This document shows, in pieces, positions 56,580 through 63,891 of a DNA stretch of 64,000 bases. Position 1 is the stretch's first letter, and each line of letters starts with the position of its first letter. The notes below the pieces were generated by a model. That model searched no databases. It saw only the letters and a program-made list of their open reading frames with translations, and was not told the origin of the DNA. The stretch is from Bdellovibrionales bacterium. Lineage in GTDB: Bacteria; Bdellovibrionota; Bdellovibrionia; Bdellovibrionales; UBA1609. Where the stretch lies: the NCBI GenBank assembly GCA_050633065.1, contig JBOEFV010000048.1:9970-73969 (forward strand), in the 5' to 3' direction. Both the position numbers and the translations under genes were made by a program.

Positions 56580-57701
56580 CTACGACCACTTTTGGTTTTC
56601 TTTTCCGACCCATTTTCCTCTTGGGCGGTAGATTCTATTATTAGAATACTGCTCAAAAGCGTGCGCCAACCAACCAGAAGTACGTGACACTGCAAAAATT
56701 GGAGTGAATAAATCCATAGGAATTCCCATTGAGTAATAAACAGTAGCAGAATAAAAATCTACGTTTGGCAAAAGGCCTTTTTGTGAAACCACAGCGTTTT
56801 CAATAATATCAGAGATTTGATACCACTTTGAATTTCCCGTGCTTTCAGAAAGGCTCTTACTCATACTCTTTAAGATTTTCGCTCTTGGGTCACCATTTTT
56901 ATAAACCCTGTGCCCAAACCCCATGATCTTAACTTTGTTTGCTAAAGCATTTTCAACCCAAGCAGGAGCTTTCTCAGCATCGTTAATTTCAAAAAGCATA
57001 CGCATAACTTGCTCGTTAGCCCCACCATGTAAAGGGCCTTTTAAAGCACCTATACCTGAAGTGATTGCAGAGTAAATGTCACTTAAAGAAGACGCCGTAA
57101 CTCTTGTTGAAAAAGCTGAGCAGTTTAGCTCATGGTCTGCATGTAGTGTTAAACACATATCCATCACCTTAACAGCTTCAGCAGCAGGCTCTTCACCACC
57201 CATCATATACAAGAAGTTCCAAGCCATTGTTTTGCCTTTTTGAGGCTGAACAAAGTCTTTCCCCTCTCTTTTTCTATGAAAGAATGAAACCAATGTTGGC
57301 ATTTTAGCCATTAAGCGAACACCAACTCTTCTTTGATTCTCTTCTGATAAATCTTGAGATTGAGCATCCCAAAGGCTTAATGCTGAAACCGCAGATCTAA
57401 GCCACGCCATTGGGTGCACATCTTTAACTGGAAGAGTATGGAGAAATGAAAGAGTTTGCTCACTTAACTGAGCATTTTCTGAAAGTTCATTCATTAAAGA
57501 CGTAGACTGCTCAGCCGTTGGCTGCTCATTGTTCCATAAAAGCCAAATTATTTCTTCAAAGCTTGCGTTTGCAGCAAGTGACTCAATTGTGTGCCCTCTA
57601 TAGCACAAAGTAGCATCAACAATTGATGATACAGCCGTTGTACAAGCAACAACTCCCTCTAAACCTTTATCTAAAGCACCTTCATACACTTCTACAGCCA
57701 C
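56580..57701 (-). CDS. gltA: Citrate synthase (small, about 370-aa type; 2-methylcitrate synthase not excluded)
   Basis: LHADHELN, GPLHGGAN, GFGHRVYKNGDPRA and catalytic ..VDFYS... GTG start with AGAGGAG 8 nt upstream. Confidence 0.9.
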   Translation of the reverse strand: MAVEVYEGALDKGLEGVVACTTAVSSIVDATLCYRGHTIESLAANASFEEIIWLLWNNEQPTAEQSTSLMNELSENAQLSEQTLSFLHTLPVKDVHPMAWLRSAVSALSLWDAQSQDLSEENQRRVGVRLMAKMPTLVSFFHRKREGKDFVQPQKGKTMAWNFLYMMGGEEPAAEAVKVMDMCLTLHADHELNCSAFSTRVTASSLSDIYSAITSGIGALKGPLHGGANEQVMRMLFEINDAEKAPAWVENALANKVKIMGFGHRVYKNGDPRAKILKSMSKSLSESTGNSKWYQISDIIENAVVSQKGLLPNVDFYSATVYYSMGIPMDLFTPIFAVSRTSGWLAHAFEQYSNNRIYRPRGKWVGKENQKWS

Positions 57702-57714
57702 GCCAAATCTCCTC

Positions 57715-58581
57715 TTAAACTAATTTAATAATATTATTTTCCACTGAGACTACAATAAGTGAAACATCTTGCATAGGCCTGCGACCGCCTAAATGCTGGT
57801 CTAGCTTGTGGAAAATATCGTTTCTTAGATCATGAACTGATTGAGTTAGAGGCACTGATGACATCGCCTTTAAAATTGGCGTGGTTGAAAAGGCATTTCC
57901 CTTAGAGTCTGGTGCTGACACCATACCAGGAGAAGCAATCACAATCCGGTCATAAGGCTTGAGTTTTATAACAGTTTCAGTTGAAAGCTCCTTAAAGTCT
58001 ACAACTCCACCCGTTTCACCATCTTGAAGAAAACATGCAACTGTTCCGTGAACTTTGTATGTGAGCTCATAAGTTTTTTTATCAATTAGCATGCAAGCAA
58101 TTTGAATCTCACTCGGGTTTTCTTTCTTTGCCTCAATTTCTTCTAAAACTTTATCTATGAAATAGACTGGAGAAGGAGCTGTCCCATCTCCTAAATCTCT
58201 GCCGTGTTTTAATAAAAACGCAATCAGCAAAGCCGTAAGTGAAGGCCCTGTTGAAGAAGAGAGAATCAGATTAAATTTAAATCTGTCTTTTTGTTCAAAA
58301 ACATCCAAATAATCTCCGTTAAACCTCATTCCAGATAAAAACTTTGTGCTAAAATGAAAGCCCGAAATATGAGGGAACTGTGTTGGAACAAGGTACTTAA
58401 AGATACTACGGACTAGGCTTAAATCACCATCTAATCCCATTAGAATCTTTGAAACAGCCATATTTAGCCGCTCAATTTCATTCTTATATGTACTTAAATC
58501 CTGCTCCCTTTCTGAAAGCTCTTTCTTAACTTTACTTAACTCCTGCTCTAAAACTGCTACTTTTGTGTCGGAATCCATCAC
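57715..58581 (-). CDS. Coiled-coil plus SpoIIE/PP2C-like domain protein with degenerate catalytic motifs
   Basis: GDYLDVF parallels GGDFYDV. LILSSSTGPSLTALL stands in place of igDVSGHGxxAA. VIASPGMV stands in place of llyTDGl. QDVSLIVV stands in place of DDiTllvl. It lies 13 nt upstream of citrate synthase on the same strand. Confidence 0.55.
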   Translation of the reverse strand: MMDSDTKVAVLEQELSKVKKELSEREQDLSTYKNEIERLNMAVSKILMGLDGDLSLVRSIFKYLVPTQFPHISGFHFSTKFLSGMRFNGDYLDVFEQKDRFKFNLILSSSTGPSLTALLIAFLLKHGRDLGDGTAPSPVYFIDKVLEEIEAKKENPSEIQIACMLIDKKTYELTYKVHGTVACFLQDGETGGVVDFKELSTETVIKLKPYDRIVIASPGMVSAPDSKGNAFSTTPILKAMSSVPLTQSVHDLRNDIFHKLDQHLGGRRPMQDVSLIVVSVENNIIKLV

Positions 58582-58692: not shown

Positions 58693-59445
58693 ATGAACAT
58701 TAATGAACTTACTGAGAATCCTGCATTCTTGTTTAAAGAGTCTTTTGTATCTGAAGAGTTAGGCATAAATCCAACATGGGAAAAAGAAATTGAAGCTATT
58801 GTTTCTGTTTGTAGCAAAGAAGAATTTTCTACTGGAATTGAGCTGCTGCGCCTTATAGAGGCCGCTTCAAAAGCCACATTCATATCAAACGATAAGCACT
58901 TTGTAACTGCACTTTCAAATGACAAACCTATTTGCTCAGAGCTTCTCGGAGGCATACTGATGTGTCTTGTTTGGCTAAATACGAAAAAAACTTTTCCAAA
59001 GGTTATTCTTTCTTCAGGGCTTTATTTTTTCACAACACCTGAAGGGCAAATCACTCAAATAAACTCAAACAGAAAAGACACTCTACCGGCATCGCAAAAG
59101 TTTGATCTTTTCAATTCTGAAAAAACAGTTCAGTTTAACTTTGTAGATTTAGTGAAGCACTACTTTGAAGAGGTTTGCTCTGAATATATTAAGAATGAAA
59201 ACTATGACTCTTTAAAAAAGGCTCAGTCTTACATGATCACTTTCGATCCTCGCGAAATAAAGTGGTATGCAAGAAGGGGACTTTTACTAAAAAGACTTGG
59301 TGATTTTTCAGGAGCTCTTTCTGACTTAAAAAGATTCTTATCTTTTTGCACTTATGAAGACGCACCTGTTGCTGTTAAAAATGCGCTGATTGAACTAGAA
59401 GGGCTTAATGCCACTGACAACTTTAGTGAGTATTCTATTCACTAG
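58693..59445 (+). CDS. SirB1/YchA-like (transglutaminase-like plus TPR) protein
   Basis: The C-terminus DPREIKWYARRGLLLKRLGDFSGALSDLKRFLSFC..D parallels E. coli YchA ..DPYEIRDRGLIYAQLDCEHVALNDLSYFVEQCPED as I recall it. The size, about 250 aa, is similar. Confidence 0.5.
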   Translation: MNINELTENPAFLFKESFVSEELGINPTWEKEIEAIVSVCSKEEFSTGIELLRLIEAASKATFISNDKHFVTALSNDKPICSELLGGILMCLVWLNTKKTFPKVILSSGLYFFTTPEGQITQINSNRKDTLPASQKFDLFNSEKTVQFNFVDLVKHYFEEVCSEYIKNENYDSLKKAQSYMITFDPREIKWYARRGLLLKRLGDFSGALSDLKRFLSFCTYEDAPVAVKNALIELEGLNATDNFSEYSIH

Positions 59446-60193
59446 GGAGTTCGTCTAAACGATCCCGTCCTAAGTAATATAGTAACGGGCAAGCTTCATG
59501 ATCATCAAAACTAAACGGCAAAAGCTCTACAACCGCCTCATCAGAACTCAAGGCCTTTCCAACGTCCGCAAGGCTTTGAGCTTCATGTAGCCCTGGGCAT
59601 TTCATTTCAACAAGGTTCTCCCCTTTGATAGTTTGAAGCACTACCTCTGGGCGCCTTATAAAATCGTACTCCCACTCAAAAGCCCTTTGATATTCTGATT
59701 CTCCAGACTCCATAAAAAATAAAAAGTTTTCATCCTCTCCTAAGCTTAGCGGCTCTTCTTTCTCCCTTGTCATACCTAAAAAACTTTTTTCCACTACAGT
59801 TATGCAATTTGGAAAAACAACATCCTTCTCAGTATCACTTTTATGAGAAACTATTAATATAGATGGAATTGCCTGCTCTAATATTGCAAGCATATGTCTA
59901 GGCATCAAATGAATGGTTTCATAATAATCTGAAGTCATTTCCATGATGCTATAAGGACTCACTTCTTGAGCCTCAAAGGCTTTCGTTTTACACGAACCCT
60001 CTTCAAAATACTCATCAACCAAACCAAGGCTATGAAGAATTTCATGTGTCACTGTTGCGCAATCACTAATATCATCCTCATACCATTTGGTAACATATGA
60101 CCTGCCGTATCCATGAACACGCTCGATAGCTTCATGAGCCTCTGCTTCTGTTAGAGTTTCTATAACTTTAAACTCAAGGCCGTACTGACCCAT
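59435..60193 (-). CDS. Putative minimal metzincin/snapalysin-like zinc metallopeptidase with an unknown C-terminal domain
   Basis: THEILHSLGLVDEY fits HExxHxxGxxD. A possible Met-turn (SPYSIMEM) lies about 30 aa later. No signal peptide. An in-frame stop 16 codons upstream fixes the short N-terminus. Confidence 0.45.
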   Translation of the reverse strand: MGQYGLEFKVIETLTEAEAHEAIERVHGYGRSYVTKWYEDDISDCATVTHEILHSLGLVDEYFEEGSCKTKAFEAQEVSPYSIMEMTSDYYETIHLMPRHMLAILEQAIPSILIVSHKSDTEKDVVFPNCITVVEKSFLGMTREKEEPLSLGEDENFLFFMESGESEYQRAFEWEYDFIRRPEVVLQTIKGENLVEMKCPGLHEAQSLADVGKALSSDEAVVELLPFSFDDHEACPLLYYLGRDRLDELPSE

Positions 60194-60377
60194 AAAGTCT
60201 TCAGTTTCTCTTAGACATCTATTAACCTTAATGTAAAATGTTTAAATGCGTCTATTTCTTAGGCACTTAAGTGCTTAACCAGATCTATCTTTTAGGGTTC
60301 TGTTTGGCTTAATAAAACTTTACACTAACATTTTTTGAGGGTCTCAAGGCCAGTATTTTTAAACTATAACCGCCCCA

Positions 60378-61280
60378 ATGAACCTGTTAAAATCCCTCCT
60401 CTTTGCTCTTATCTTCTTTCCAATAGCATCTTTTGCTCAGCACCCTGACATAAGTAAATTCAATAGCCTCTTTAAAGGTCAGCTATATGCTGGTTTTGGC
60501 CTTGCCAGAGACCTTGTTTCTCATGTTTACCAAGGAAAACCCTTTAACCCTAGAGACTATGACTTTGCCGTAGTGGGAACTGGCTGGAGCGAAGAAAAAG
60601 CCGAACAAGTTTTATCTAGATATGGAACTATTGTTAGAAAGCTTAGAGTCGGCAAAGAGGTCCTTAAGCCAAGCGGACGTGTTTTTTCTTATGAATATGG
60701 CTTTGTTATCATTTTAGAGTATAAAGGTGAGCAGCTAGATTTTAAATTTTTTGACACCCTAGAAGACGCCCACATCAGAGGCCTGTATGATGTTGAAAAA
60801 ATTCTTTTCCCTTTAAACGAAAGGTCTATTGATCAACTCGTTGCCGACACTCACCAGATTAAAAGCCGCTCCAGGCTCCCTGAAGGGCGAGAGGTCTCAG
60901 ACCCACACAAAGGAATTGAATCTACCCTGGCAGAAAGGCCACTGACTGTAAACTGGGGAAGAGCCACTGCGGCCCCTATAGACTGGGCGGTTCGAGGCGC
61001 TATGATTTATGCCAAACTAGGCAAAAATGATTTCCCTCATGCCGAGAAACAAAAAATGATTCAAATGCTTCACTCCGTTCAATTTATGCTCCCCTCTGAT
61101 TACGCAATCATTAGACGAGCAATAAAGCACAAGAGCTCTTCTCGAGTGAAGGAACTCCTAGACAGCATAGGCTTCTTTGAGAAATATCAAAAATGGCGTT
61201 GGAATGAACCTATTTCCGGAGAAATTAAATCCTGGTTAGAGGGGCGCCTTAGCCCACTATACTGCAAAGGCCTTCTTTAA
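60378..61280 (+). CDS. Signal-peptide-bearing nucleotidyltransferase related to the CCA-adding enzyme / poly(A) polymerase head domain
   Basis: Signal peptide MNLLKSLLFALIFFPIASFA. LYAGFGLARDLV....PRDYDFAVVG parallels E. coli Cca YLVGGAVRDALLG..VKDRDWVVVG. DPHKGIESTLAERPL parallels DPYNGLGDLQNRLL. APIDWAVRGAMIYAKLG parallels EDPLRVLRVARFAARY. Confidence 0.55.
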   Translation: MNLLKSLLFALIFFPIASFAQHPDISKFNSLFKGQLYAGFGLARDLVSHVYQGKPFNPRDYDFAVVGTGWSEEKAEQVLSRYGTIVRKLRVGKEVLKPSGRVFSYEYGFVIILEYKGEQLDFKFFDTLEDAHIRGLYDVEKILFPLNERSIDQLVADTHQIKSRSRLPEGREVSDPHKGIESTLAERPLTVNWGRATAAPIDWAVRGAMIYAKLGKNDFPHAEKQKMIQMLHSVQFMLPSDYAIIRRAIKHKSSSRVKELLDSIGFFEKYQKWRWNEPISGEIKSWLEGRLSPLYCKGLL

Positions 61281-61392: not shown

Positions 61393-61484
61393 TGGCGGAG
61401 GAGGGGGGATTCGAACCCCCGGTACGATGTTACTCGCACGACAGATTAGCAATCTGCTGGTTTCAGCCACTCACCCACTCCTCC
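61393..61484 (-). tRNA. tRNA-Ser (anticodon GCU)
   Basis: Hand-folded from the reverse complement. Acceptor GGAGGAG/CTCCTCC. Anticodon arm GCAGA-TTGCTAA-TCTGT. The long variable arm has a 6-bp stem. T arm GGGGG-TTCGAAT-CCCCC. CCA is encoded. 92 nt. Confidence 0.9.
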
Positions 61485-62204: not shown

Positions 62205-62281
62205 GCGCTCGTAGCTCAGCTGGATAGAGTACCTGACTACGAATCAGGTGGTCGGAGGTTCGACTCCTTCCGGGCGCGCCA
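62205..62281 (+). tRNA. tRNA-Arg (anticodon ACG)
   Basis: Hand-folded. Acceptor GCGCTCG/CGGGCGC with one G-U pair. D arm GCTC-AGCTGGATA-GAGT. Anticodon arm CCTGA-CTACGAA-TCAGG. T arm GGAGG-TTCGACT-CCTTC. CCA is encoded. 77 nt and close to E. coli tRNA-Arg(ACG). Confidence 0.92.
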
Positions 62282-62321: not shown

Positions 62322-62456
62322 ATGCTTAGATTAGTGATTTTTTTAACTGCTCTTATTGGCACGTCTACGTTTAGTACAAACAACAGAGATGTTAGCATCG
62401 ATGACTTAGCAAAAACTCAGCAGTGCTTACTTTTGGATGATTCTGCTGATCAATAG
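62322..62456 (+). CDS. Candidate 44-aa small secreted peptide, not in the ORF track
   Basis: GGAGG at 62313-62317 lies 4 nt before the ATG. Translation: MLRLVIFLTALIGTSTFSTNNRDVSIDDLAKTQQCLLLDDSADQ*, with a signal-like N-terminus. The last 30 nt overlap the 3' end of the convergent lysozyme gene. Confidence 0.3.
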   Translation: MLRLVIFLTALIGTSTFSTNNRDVSIDDLAKTQQCLLLDDSADQ

Positions 62457-63131
62457 CTTATTGCTAAAAACATTTACATCAACAGGCGCGTCAATACCCT
62501 TAACCTCACCACCGTTGTAGTATTGCCAGATTCCCCATCTTTTTTCATACATTGGCGGCCCCACTAAAGAACGCAGCCAAAAAATATTTTTAAATTTAAA
62601 AATTTCTGGATGCAGTTTTGCGAACTCTCTCGTTGTGTAAACAACTGGAAGCTCTCCGTAAGTTGCTAAAATTTTTGCATTAAGCTTTTCTAAATCTTTT
62701 GAAAGTCTTGCTGACGCATCATCTAAACCACATCCGTAAGCAGACTCAATATCTATGGCTGGAACCATATCTCCTATAGAGTGAGGGACTGTGTCTTTTA
62801 AATTTTTAATTTGTTCTTCAGCTGTTTTACAAAAAGTCCAAAAGTGATAGCCACCAACTAACAAACCTTCTTTTTTTGCGCCCGCATAGTTTTTTAAAAA
62901 ATTTTTATCTTTAAATGATGCGCCTTCTGTAGACTTGATATAAACAAATTTAAAATGGCTCTTGCCCACAAGCTTCCAGTCAATATCTCCTTGATGGTGA
63001 GACACATCCAAACCACTTACATTAAAAAAGGTTTTAGAGGGATAATTAAACTGCTTTTTTCCAGTGTAACCCCAATAAAAAAGCCCCGCTGTTAACAAAT
63101 AAGAACCTAATGCAAGACCATACCACTTCAT
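62427..63131 (-). CDS. Glycoside hydrolase family 25 muramidase (lysozyme) with an N-terminal membrane anchor or signal
   Basis: GLDVSHHQGDIDW, FVYIKSTEG, GGYHFW and DVNVF are typical GH25 motifs. Hydrophobic N-terminus MKWYGLALGSYLLTAGLFYWGY. Confidence 0.85.
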   Translation of the reverse strand: MKWYGLALGSYLLTAGLFYWGYTGKKQFNYPSKTFFNVSGLDVSHHQGDIDWKLVGKSHFKFVYIKSTEGASFKDKNFLKNYAGAKKEGLLVGGYHFWTFCKTAEEQIKNLKDTVPHSIGDMVPAIDIESAYGCGLDDASARLSKDLEKLNAKILATYGELPVVYTTREFAKLHPEIFKFKNIFWLRSLVGPPMYEKRWGIWQYYNGGEVKGIDAPVDVNVFSNKLLISRIIQK

Positions 63132-63218: not shown

Positions 63219-63617
63219 ATGCTGAACATGGGACTTCTAAAGGACAAATTAGACAAATTCTCTCTTGCTCTTAAAAATCTTGAGGAGGCTTTATCAGATC
63301 CTATTAAAACCAATAGAGACCGTGCCGGCATCATTCAAACATTTGAGTTTACCTATGAGATGTCTTGGAGGCTTCTTAGGGAGCTCTTAGCACAACAAGG
63401 GTTTGAAGCCCCTTCATCACCTCGCTCTGTTTTTAAGGACGCATATTCTGCAAAGCTTATAAATAACGAAGAAGCGTGGCTTAGTATGATTCTCCAAAGA
63501 AATCTAACAACTCACACATATGATCAGAACACAGCTGATGAAGTCATTAAGTTAATTTCATCCTCTTACCTCCCCAACCTTAAATCTTTATATGAAACAG
63601 CCCAGCAGCATTCCTAA
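63219..63617 (+). CDS. HEPN-domain protein, HI0074-type nucleotidyltransferase substrate-binding subunit
   Basis: IIQTFEFTYEMSWRLLRELL and the Rx4H HEPN motif in ILQRNLTTHTYD. Confidence 0.8.
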   Translation: MLNMGLLKDKLDKFSLALKNLEEALSDPIKTNRDRAGIIQTFEFTYEMSWRLLRELLAQQGFEAPSSPRSVFKDAYSAKLINNEEAWLSMILQRNLTTHTYDQNTADEVIKLISSSYLPNLKSLYETAQQHS

Positions 63618-63891
63618 AGAGGTTTTTAATTTACTTCTAAAAATAAAAAGAATGTTCCCTGTTGAGCAAATTTTACTCTTTGGCTCTAGAGCTCGCGGAG
63701 ACTTTAAAGAACGCTCAGATATAGACATCGCAATTTCAGCACCAGCCTGCAATTCAAGGCAGTGGTTAGAAATTGAAGAGCTTCTACTATACAATTCAGT
63801 CTCTCTTCTTAATATCGATCTAGTTCGATTTGATCAAATCACAGACCCTACCTTCAAAGAACGAATTGAAAGTGAAAGCATAAGTATTTAA
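63592..63891 (+). CDS. Minimal nucleotidyltransferase (MNT, DNA polymerase beta-like)
   Basis: LLFGSRARGDFKERSDIDIAI contains GS...D.D. 99 aa. Overlaps the HEPN gene by 26 nt. Confidence 0.85.
   Translation: MKQPSSIPKEVFNLLLKIKRMFPVEQILLFGSRARGDFKERSDIDIAISAPACNSRQWLEIEELLLYNSVSLLNIDLVRFDQITDPTFKERIESESISI

Follow-up and report, generated by a model that had tools for sequence, protein, structure and literature searches.

To our knowledge, all class II nucleotidyltransferases characterised so far work in RNA maturation in the cytoplasm or in organelles; they comprise the CCA-, CC- and A-adding enzymes and bacterial poly(A) polymerase. Members of the class carry an RRD sequence, motif B. An Asp and an Arg of the neck domain (D-x-x-R) read the base of CTP or ATP through hydrogen bonding akin to that of Watson-Crick pairs (PMC3925840). 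A more compact relative is FAM46B of the metazoan-specific FAM46 proteins, an active poly(A) polymerase that resembles class II and consists only of a catalytic domain and a neck-like helical domain (PMC7049688). Here we describe a gene from a 64,000-nucleotide stretch of contig JBOEFV010000048.1 of a Bdellovibrionales bacterium, the whole of which we call the window. The gene (60378..61280, plus strand) is monocistronic, starts with ATG and encodes 300 amino acids followed by a stop codon, and its product is a head-and-neck nucleotidyltransferase (NTase) of the class II kind, predicted to be exported, and not a CCA-adding enzyme.

We compared the protein with the CC-adding enzyme of A. aeolicus (3WFO-3WFS), the CCA-adding enzyme of T. 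maritima (3H37/3H39), the A-adding enzymes (1VFG/4WBY-4WC2) and E. coli poly(A) polymerase I. All have a head fold with G-G/x-G...R-D, D-x-D and a third carboxylate and a neck of helices that bears D-P-x-x-G and a helix with Arg/Lys, in the same order and register. The window protein is unlike them in having a longer spacer between the glycine motif and D-x-D, an extra beta-hairpin in the head, a predicted signal peptide and a Cys tail at the C-terminus; it lacks the body and tail domains, D-x-x-R and RRD, and lies below detection for PF01743 and PF12627. The Pol-beta fold and the class II type are known, and what appears new, judged from the sequence, is an exported form reduced to head and neck that would solve base selection differently. 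Neither the literature searched nor Pfam, NCBIfam, PADLOC or PHROGs describes such a variant.

An identical sequence (100%) is recorded as a 'hypothetical protein' in a Bdellovibrionales metagenome-assembled genome (MAG). A word-indexed search of 5.8 billion proteins returned 14 clusters at 44-57% identity, 294-309 residues long where complete; none had a Pfam domain, and all named sources were uncultured Bdellovibrionales. Among 185,579 species-representative genomes, only two encoded a close homologue, both of them uncultured Bdellovibrionales MAGs. The family to which the window protein belongs is unannotated and has been encountered in uncultured Bdellovibrionales alone.

An AlphaFold2 model built on the close-family alignment had a mean predicted local distance difference test score (pLDDT) of 87.9 and a predicted template modelling score (pTM) of 0.82, and in it only the signal peptide and the nine C-terminal residues scored low. 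When the model was compared with the PDB by Foldseek, the 17 best matches were all chains of the A. aeolicus CC-adding enzyme (3WFO-3WFS), with E values of 1e-6 to 7e-5, query TM-scores (TMq) of 0.46-0.55 and 258-281 aligned columns. The match to 3WFP had a probability of 1.00 and E=1e-6, and the CC-adding enzyme was aligned at E=1e-6 over about 267 columns. The enzyme in these structures is AaS of A. aeolicus (PMC3925840), and 3WFR is described as a CC-adding enzyme (PMC4810234, PMC3925840). All significant PDB matches were NTases. In the viral library BFVD, the top named matches were a 'Poly A polymerase head domain-containing protein' and a 'tRNA nucleotidyltransferase/poly(A) polymerase'. 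As a control we modelled P0039, a protein from Bdellovibrionota with about 21% identity to that of the window (pLDDT 90.0, pTM 0.87), and its top 29 PDB matches were all class II CC-, CCA- and A-adding enzymes.

FAM46A and FAM46C came next in the Foldseek search (E about 7e-4, TMq 0.41-0.43, root-mean-square deviation 8.6 A), so that FAM46/TENT5 (6W38, 8EXF) is the second-best structural group, with a match much weaker than that of the class II tRNA NTases. The two-domain layout of FAM46/TENT5 (NCD+HD) appears similar to that of the window protein, with an enlarged class-II-like catalytic domain with beta-hairpins and a neck-like helical domain, at about 300-350 residues and with no separate RNA-binding domain. 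However, FAM46 shows no detectable sequence similarity to the window protein and has no signal peptide.

The ranking of structural neighbours bears on two other possible activities. First, the enzyme might AMPylate or otherwise nucleotidylylate a protein or glycan of the periplasm, the outer membrane or the prey. Such a role would fit the predicted extracytoplasmic location, and other enzymes of the Pol-beta fold do likewise: GlnE, DrrA and the ANT enzymes nucleotidylylate proteins or drugs. Yet in structure its neighbours are the RNA enzymes of class II rather than those of the GlnE, DrrA, ANT or LicD/fukutin types, and no target gene is linked to the NTase gene in the five close-family loci that we compared (the window, L003, L004, L005 and L007), which makes this role quite improbable. 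Second, an NTase fold with no domain for binding a macromolecular substrate could belong to a synthase of a signalling nucleotide with an oligoadenylate- or cyclic-oligonucleotide-like product, and OAS1 was among the low-ranked Foldseek matches. However, OAS1 and Pol X appeared only at noise level (for OAS1, probability 0.09-0.21 and TMq about 0.16), no receptor or effector gene is linked, and an exported synthase would have no substrate in the producer's periplasm. PADLOC models, including the cGAS/DncV-like NTases (CD-NTases) of cyclic-oligonucleotide-based antiphage signalling systems (CBASS), and PHROGs gave no credible match for the protein, so that an origin in a defence system or a phage is unsupported, and we regard a signalling synthase as very improbable. 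More generally, no PADLOC or Pfam match was found to NTases of defence and toxin-antitoxin systems (CBASS CD-NTase, MNT, AbiEii/MenT).

Sequence-level evidence for class II ancestry came from profile comparison. When E. coli Cca was used as the seed of a homologue search, no sequence below 87% identity came back and diversity did not increase, and for this reason we aligned a profile of 78 domains from the wider superfamily with the single E. coli sequences of Cca and PcnB by HHalign. The head aligned with Cca residues 1-122 (score 26.2, P=4e-4, against at most 16.0 among 30 shuffled controls), with LYAGFGLARD opposite IYLVGGAVRD and PRDYDFAVVG opposite VKDRDWVVVG. The neck aligned with Cca residues 102-208 (P=1.7e-5, probability 79%), pairing SDPHKG with IDPYNG and AP.DWAVRGAMIYAKLG with EDPLRVLRVARFAARYAHLG, the latter pairing also being written as AP.DWAVRGAM...IYAKLG with EDPLR.VLRVARFAARYAHLG. 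PcnB was not significant alone (neck P=0.005, head P=0.05). The alignment with Cca stops at residue 208 of 412, and the body and tail are absent from the 300-residue protein.

Searches of sequence libraries gave no signal. With the single sequence and with a 14-member profile as queries, nothing above noise came from Pfam (E<=10), NCBIfam or PDB sequences; PF01743 (PolyA_pol) did not match the protein at E<=10 or any of 32 diverse relatives at E<=5, and PF12627 (PolyA_pol_RNAbd) gave a single match (E=0.2) in a permissive Pfam scan of the same 32 relatives. The homology to class II is therefore visible only at the level of profile-sequence comparison and structure. An earlier note, made by eye from the sequence, had proposed a truncated nucleotidyltransferase of the CCA-adding enzyme or poly(A) polymerase type on the strength of four motif pairings. 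All four were reproduced by HHalign, the absence of a tRNA-binding body and tail that it had claimed agrees with the end of the Cca alignment, and the NTase fold that it expected was recovered by Foldseek and BFVD; the match that it proposed to look for with the hidden Markov model (HMM) of the PolyA_pol head domain did not appear. The modification of envelope or prey molecules considered above was among its suggestions. Its word 'truncated' describes the architecture correctly but not the gene, which is undamaged and belongs to a family of uniform length. Taken together, these data leave the fold and the distant class II homology beyond reasonable doubt.

The head, a catalytic domain of Pol-beta type, occupies approximately residues 22-168 (60441..60881) according to the AlphaFold2 model, Foldseek and the alignment with Cca 1-122. 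In the model, the order of secondary structure is predicted to be beta (36-39), helix (40-52), beta (61-66, with D-x-D), a long beta-hairpin (84-96 and 102-115), beta (118-125, with D121) and then helices, which is that of a Pol-beta NTase core followed by a helical neck; the hairpin is the extra element relative to Cca. The first part of motif A, G39-F-G-L-A-R-D45 (60492..60512), forms the helix-turn G[GS] motif and pairs with GGAVRD of Cca. It is invariant in the close family and appears as GGGSAR in the wider superfamily, where G41 is kept in 72 of the 78 domains. The second part, R59-D60-Y-D62-F-A64 (60552..60569), lies on strand 61-66, supplies the first two metal-binding carboxylates and pairs with D-R-D-W of Cca, and R59, D60 and D62 are each present in 75-76 domains. 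The Pol-beta pattern hG[GS]...[DE]h[DE]h is thus found as A38-G-F-G41 followed by D60-Y-D62-F, with a spacer of 18 residues as against the classical 9-13. The third carboxylate, D121, lies in Q119-L-D121-F-K-F-F125 (60732..60752) and is conserved in 71 domains, with Glu in two more. In the segment A131-H-I-R134-G135-L-Y-D138-V-E140-K141 (60768..60800), G135 and an acidic residue (D/E) at 140 are each found in 77 domains, and position 134 is Asn in 59 and Arg in 16.

The helical neck-like domain covers approximately residues 169-272 (60882..61193), as placed by the alignment with Cca 102-208, and the model shows helices from 179 to 287. It contains a motif C-like sequence, S174-D175-P-H-K-G179 (60897..60914), which pairs with I-D-P-Y-N-G of Cca and in which D175 is kept in 77 domains and G179 in 72. 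In the HHalign register, it also contains a motif D-like helix, A198-A-P-I-D-W-A-V-R206-G-A-M-I-Y-A-K213-L-G215 (60969..61022), with R206 in 74 domains and K213 in 70. Across the 78 domains, which share only about 20% identity, the near-invariant positions are G41, R59, D60, D62, G108, D121, G135, D/E140, D175, G179, W193, P200, R206 and K213. By that same register, D175, R206 and K213 would lie at the interface of head and neck, where we infer a set comparable to inter-domain pairs elsewhere; Asp-Arg pairs of this kind occur in ecPAP and tmCCA, and a Glu-Lys pair in FAM46B (PMC7049688).

Because the carboxylate triad, G-x-G and the Asp/Arg-Lys set are kept across such divergent sequences, an active enzyme is favoured, and the protein is probably a working NTase. 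One could suppose instead a protein that binds nucleotides or RNA, or a hydrolase or phosphorylase that strips nucleotidyl groups, since NTPs (nucleoside triphosphates) are scarce outside the cytoplasm and motifs B and D have diverged; the near-invariance of the metal-binding triad and G-x-G speaks for two-metal phosphoryl-transfer chemistry, and a non-transferase is in our view improbable.

Residues 1-20, MNLLKSLLFALIFFPIASFA (60378..60437), were called a signal peptide by rule, with the mature protein beginning QHPDIS. The segment satisfies the rules for Sec export and signal peptidase I, namely a positive n-region, an apolar h-region of 7-15 residues and small residues at -3 and -1. It has K5 in the n-region, an apolar core of 15 residues (S6-A20) that contains Pro and has a mean Kyte-Doolittle hydropathy of 2.25, and a predicted cleavage site at S18-F-A20 before Q21. 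By the same rules it has neither a twin-arginine (Tat) motif nor a lipobox. In the AlphaFold2 model the segment has low pLDDT and is not packed against the fold. In the family alignment the sequence of the N-terminal segment drifts and its hydrophobicity is kept, which is consistent with the way signal peptides evolve.

All close homologues with an intact 5' end have a signal peptide followed by a conserved mature N-terminus, HPD[LIV]. Two members, P0008 and P0012, apparently lack one because their called starts are too late (L012, 1501-2325, for P0008; L011, 545-1405, for P0012, in the public gene calls). Translation of the upstream in-frame sequence from earlier ATGs restores full signal peptides, MKLLILFFLFFSFKGHA followed by QQHPDV in P0008 and MRFLTLLFLLFFYQLAMA followed by RQHPDL in P0012. 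In P0004 and P0005 the 5' end is cut or miscalled.

The start of the window gene itself is well defined. An in-frame TAA lies at 60360, 18 nt before the ATG at 60378, and the sole other in-frame ATG, GTG or TTG within the first 120 codons is the GTG of codon 66. Initiation there would remove both GFGLARD and the D-x-D motif, and a downstream alternative start was ruled out for this reason. The hydrophobic N-terminus must therefore be translated, because the ATG at 60378 is the only start that retains the catalytic motifs.

The wider superfamily leaves room for a cytoplasmic or inner-membrane-anchored protein with an uncleaved N-terminus, since about 40% of its members have no signal-peptide-like N-terminus. 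However, the 15-residue, Pro-containing core is too short for a typical transmembrane helix, the small residues at -3 and -1 are followed by the conserved HPD[LIV] sequence, the N-terminal Lys predicts an N-in/C-out topology even without cleavage, and lipoboxes occur in related proteins. Retention in the cytoplasm or inner membrane is thus exceedingly improbable, and from its sequence features the window NTase is very likely exported. The earlier note had seen a textbook signal peptide here, had allowed for a true start farther downstream and had proposed a survey of signal-bearing homologues. The rules and the family-wide retention bear out the first point, the start cannot lie downstream, nothing points to a cytoplasmic protein, and no close homologue that is complete at its 5' end lacks the signal.

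We then considered the residues that determine specificity in class II. In the HHalign register, the D-x-x-R positions fall on A199 and D202 of the window protein. Position 199 is Ser or Ala in the close family and Asp in only 36 of the 78 domains, and the Arg position is variable. At the position of motif B (RRD) the segment reads I-R134-G135 (N-G in the main branch of the superfamily), with only G135 conserved. With neither D-x-x-R nor RRD conserved, the sequence does not allow a prediction of the donor NTP, and the divergence of both, together with the missing body and tail, places the protein outside the CCA-, CC- and A-adding enzymes and poly(A) polymerase I.

An export signal and intact catalytic residues combined with the absence of tRNA-binding domains imply template-independent nucleotidyl transfer outside the cytoplasm of the producer, and for a bacterial predator the action would most plausibly take place inside or beside the prey. 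The reading that we prefer, with a probability of roughly 45%, is a Sec-exported head-and-neck NTase that tails the 3'-OH ends of prey-derived RNA or nucleotides. Cleavage between A20 and Q21 would give a mature enzyme of 280 residues, which would bind an NTP and two Mg2+ in the cleft between head and neck and pass the nucleoside monophosphate to a hydroxyl acceptor with release of pyrophosphate. The 3'-OH ends of RNA, oligonucleotides or nucleotides would be tailed in this non-templated way in the bdelloplast or in lysed prey. Polyadenylation promotes RNA decay in bacteria, and, speculatively, the tails could act as single-stranded toeholds for exonucleases that mark structured prey RNA for breakdown, with prey NTPs consumed in the process. 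The periplasm of the producer is expected to hold no NTPs. We prefer the prey compartment as the site because prey NTPs and RNA would be at hand there; prey-directed action is nonetheless put forward only tentatively. An RNA 3' end is favoured as acceptor because all characterised structural relatives, including FAM46/TENT5, extend RNA 3' ends, and by this analogy an RNA or oligonucleotide acceptor is a reasonable possibility, at somewhat less than even odds. B. bacteriovorus is reported to release secreted nucleases sequentially during its predatory cycle (PMC7925074).

Several observations weigh against the tailing of prey RNA. The HMMs of PolyA_pol and PolyA_pol_RNAbd do not match, neither the base-reading D-x-x-R template nor RRD is conserved, and no RNA-binding body or tail domain is present. 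The mature proteins span net charges of -4 to +12 and pI values of 6.0 to 9.7, a spread so wide that a basic RNA-binding surface is not conserved. The five loci have no conserved neighbour or immunity-like gene that would back a toxin role, the predatory lifestyle of the source MAGs is assumed from taxonomy, and the NadD-like, Ham1 and kinase fusions of distant relatives, described below, point equally to small-nucleotide chemistry. If the reading is true, RNA tailing or nucleotide conversion would join nucleases, proteases and peptidoglycan hydrolases in the enzymology of predation as a new kind of chemistry, and the protein would offer a very small class II polymerase scaffold with a different mode of base selection. 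It would also bring to light a superfamily, unannotated and covered by neither Pfam nor NCBIfam, where export is likewise predicted for NadD-like and Ham1 domains.

This superfamily was delineated by an exhaustive HMMER scan of 1.84 billion representatives, which returned 70 clusters at E<=1e-3, none with a Pfam model over the NTase module. Its main branch has the motif Y-I-G-G-G-S-A-R...M-R-D-L-D, and its members are longer than the window protein, either 330-400 residues, extending into body-like helices, or multidomain with 600-1245 residues. The window protein is a short, divergent branch at about 20% identity; it shares with the superfamily the invariant core, the frequent signal peptides and the Cys tail, and its family has F40 in place of G, R134 in place of N and M209 in place of R.

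Fusion to CTP_transf_like domains is seen in 24 of the 70 distant relatives, and NCBIfam assigns these domains to the nicotinic acid mononucleotide/nicotinamide mononucleotide (NaMN/NMN) adenylyltransferases of the NadD type, with P0023 and P0030 above the TIGR00482 cut-off. Three relatives carry RdgB/Ham1 domains and one an APH/choline-kinase-like domain. A signal-peptide-like N-terminus is present in 50 of 83 superfamily proteins and a lipobox in 4. The HxGH motif of NadD is intact in 11 relatives, nine of which have a signal peptide or lipobox (P0018, P0020, P0021, P0023, P0030, P0031, P0058, P0062 and P0071). These nine are multidomain proteins of 565-1067 residues with a class-II-like NTase module and a NadD-type adenylyltransferase, and P0018 and P0030 have a Ham1/RdgB domain as well. 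Predicted export of NadD and Ham1 enzymes is unexpected; literature searches on exported class-II-like NTases and on exported NadD/Ham1 enzymes found no description and nothing relevant.

These fusions are one ground for the chief rival reading, an extracytoplasmic enzyme whose substrates are mono- or dinucleotides, such as pyridine nucleotides or NTPs, and not RNA, and which may serve to harvest or salvage prey nucleotides, possibly in the direction of pyrophosphorolysis. Besides the 24 NadD-type, three RdgB/Ham1 and one APH/choline-kinase fusions and the export signals of nine of the 11 HxGH carriers, the missing body and tail, a base template unlike that of the RNA-tailing class II enzymes and the variable net charge are consistent with it. 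However, the fusions occur only in relatives of about 20% identity, the close family is single-module and has no such neighbour gene, the characterised structural relatives without exception work on RNA 3' ends, and Ham1 could equally clean the nucleotide pool for a polymerase. A small-nucleotide enzyme is therefore unlikely on balance, though a serious contender. The cytidylyltransferase-like and choline-kinase fusions had also prompted the idea of a LicD-like CDP-alcohol (cytidine diphosphate-alcohol) phosphotransferase. We rejected it, since the fused domains are of the NadD type and the structural match to LicD/FKTN is poor (one BFVD match at rank 23, E=6.5e-3, TMq 0.21); LicD, fukutin and FKRP were absent from the PDB top 50, and Pfam gave no LicD match.

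A further feature of the protein is its C-terminal Cys tail, C296-K-G-L-L (61263..61277), which has a pLDDT below 50. C296 is the sole Cys of the window protein and is invariant in 14 of 14 close-family members, whose tails follow the pattern C-x-x-[LIVM]-[FLIY]-x0-3. In the superfamily the tail takes the form C-x-x-[LIVM]-[FLIY]-x0-4 at the extreme C-terminus; 35 of the 83 proteins have a Cys in the last 10 residues, about 9-fold more than the 4.8% expected from Cys content. The tail is kept at the C-terminus of multidomain proteins, hundreds of residues from the NTase module, and is associated with a signal peptide (Fisher p=0.015). It could form an intermolecular disulfide, act as an anchoring or sorting signal or be a site of modification. 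None of the NCBIfam sorting-signal models matched it, and a literature search on a C-terminal Cys signal in Bdellovibrio gave nothing relevant. The idea of a general C-terminal sorting tag in this genome found no support, since no other open reading frame of the window has the tail, signal-peptide-bearing ones included. A broader version of the preferred reading would have the exported minimal class II NTase tail or poison the 3' ends of prey RNA or tRNA, or convert prey nucleotides, as one member of an undescribed extracytoplasmic nucleotide-handling set (signal peptide, NTase, NadD-like and Ham1) that shares the Cys tail as a signal for sorting, anchoring or dimerisation. The NTase would then stand for a new class of predation enzyme. 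Taken as a whole, this version is something of a long shot.

The surroundings of the gene were also analysed. A candidate sigma-70-like promoter, TAGACA-16-TAAAAT (60212..60239, plus strand), lies about 140 nt upstream of the start; it was found by a consensus scan only (10/12), and its weight as evidence is small. The 20 nt preceding the ATG show no Shine-Dalgarno motif. The GC content of the gene is 0.44 as against 0.36-0.41 in its neighbours, only slightly higher and hence uninformative about horizontal transfer. Both flanking genes lie on the opposite strand. Neither Pfam nor all-against-all BLAST (+/-4.5 kb) revealed a neighbour gene common to the five loci, and an operon partner or immunity gene was dismissed for this reason.

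The divergent upstream neighbour (59435-60193, minus strand) encodes a 252-residue protein with no Pfam match and no signal peptide; it contains HEILHSLGLVDEY, an HExxH motif like that of zinc metalloproteases, and is not kept beside the NTase gene in other genomes. Downstream of the NTase gene are tRNA-Ser(GCT) (61393-61484, minus strand, 113 nt beyond the NTase stop), a gene for a SIS-domain protein and, farther on, tRNA-Arg(ACG) (62205-62281, plus strand), and these two tRNAs are the only Rfam matches near the gene. The adjacency to tRNA appears coincidental because L003 and L004 have no tRNA beside the homologous gene.

About 2.3 kb from the NTase gene lies a second, unrelated Pol-beta NTase in a HepT/MNT toxin-antitoxin pair, in which a HepT-like gene (63219-63617, plus strand; NTase_sub_bind/HepT, E=2e-34) overlaps a gene for an MNT-type minimal nucleotidyltransferase (63592-63891, plus strand; Polbeta/NTP_transf_2, E about 1e-12). 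MNT proteins belong to the same Pol-beta NTase superfamily as the window protein, but they are cytoplasmic proteins of about 100 residues (PF01909/PF18765) paired with HepT, whereas the window NTase matches neither PF01909 nor PF18765 and has no partner gene. Between this pair and tRNA-Arg is a gene for a GH25 muramidase with a hydrophobic N-terminal segment (62427-63131, minus strand, E=1.6e-32), which could be a lysozyme related to predation or to the cell wall. On the other side of the NTase gene, a 288-residue protein with a coiled-coil-like N-terminus (57715-58581, minus strand) has a weak match to SpoIIE/PP2C phosphatases that is below the cut-off (E=1e-4), and its gene adjoins that for citrate synthase (56580-57701).

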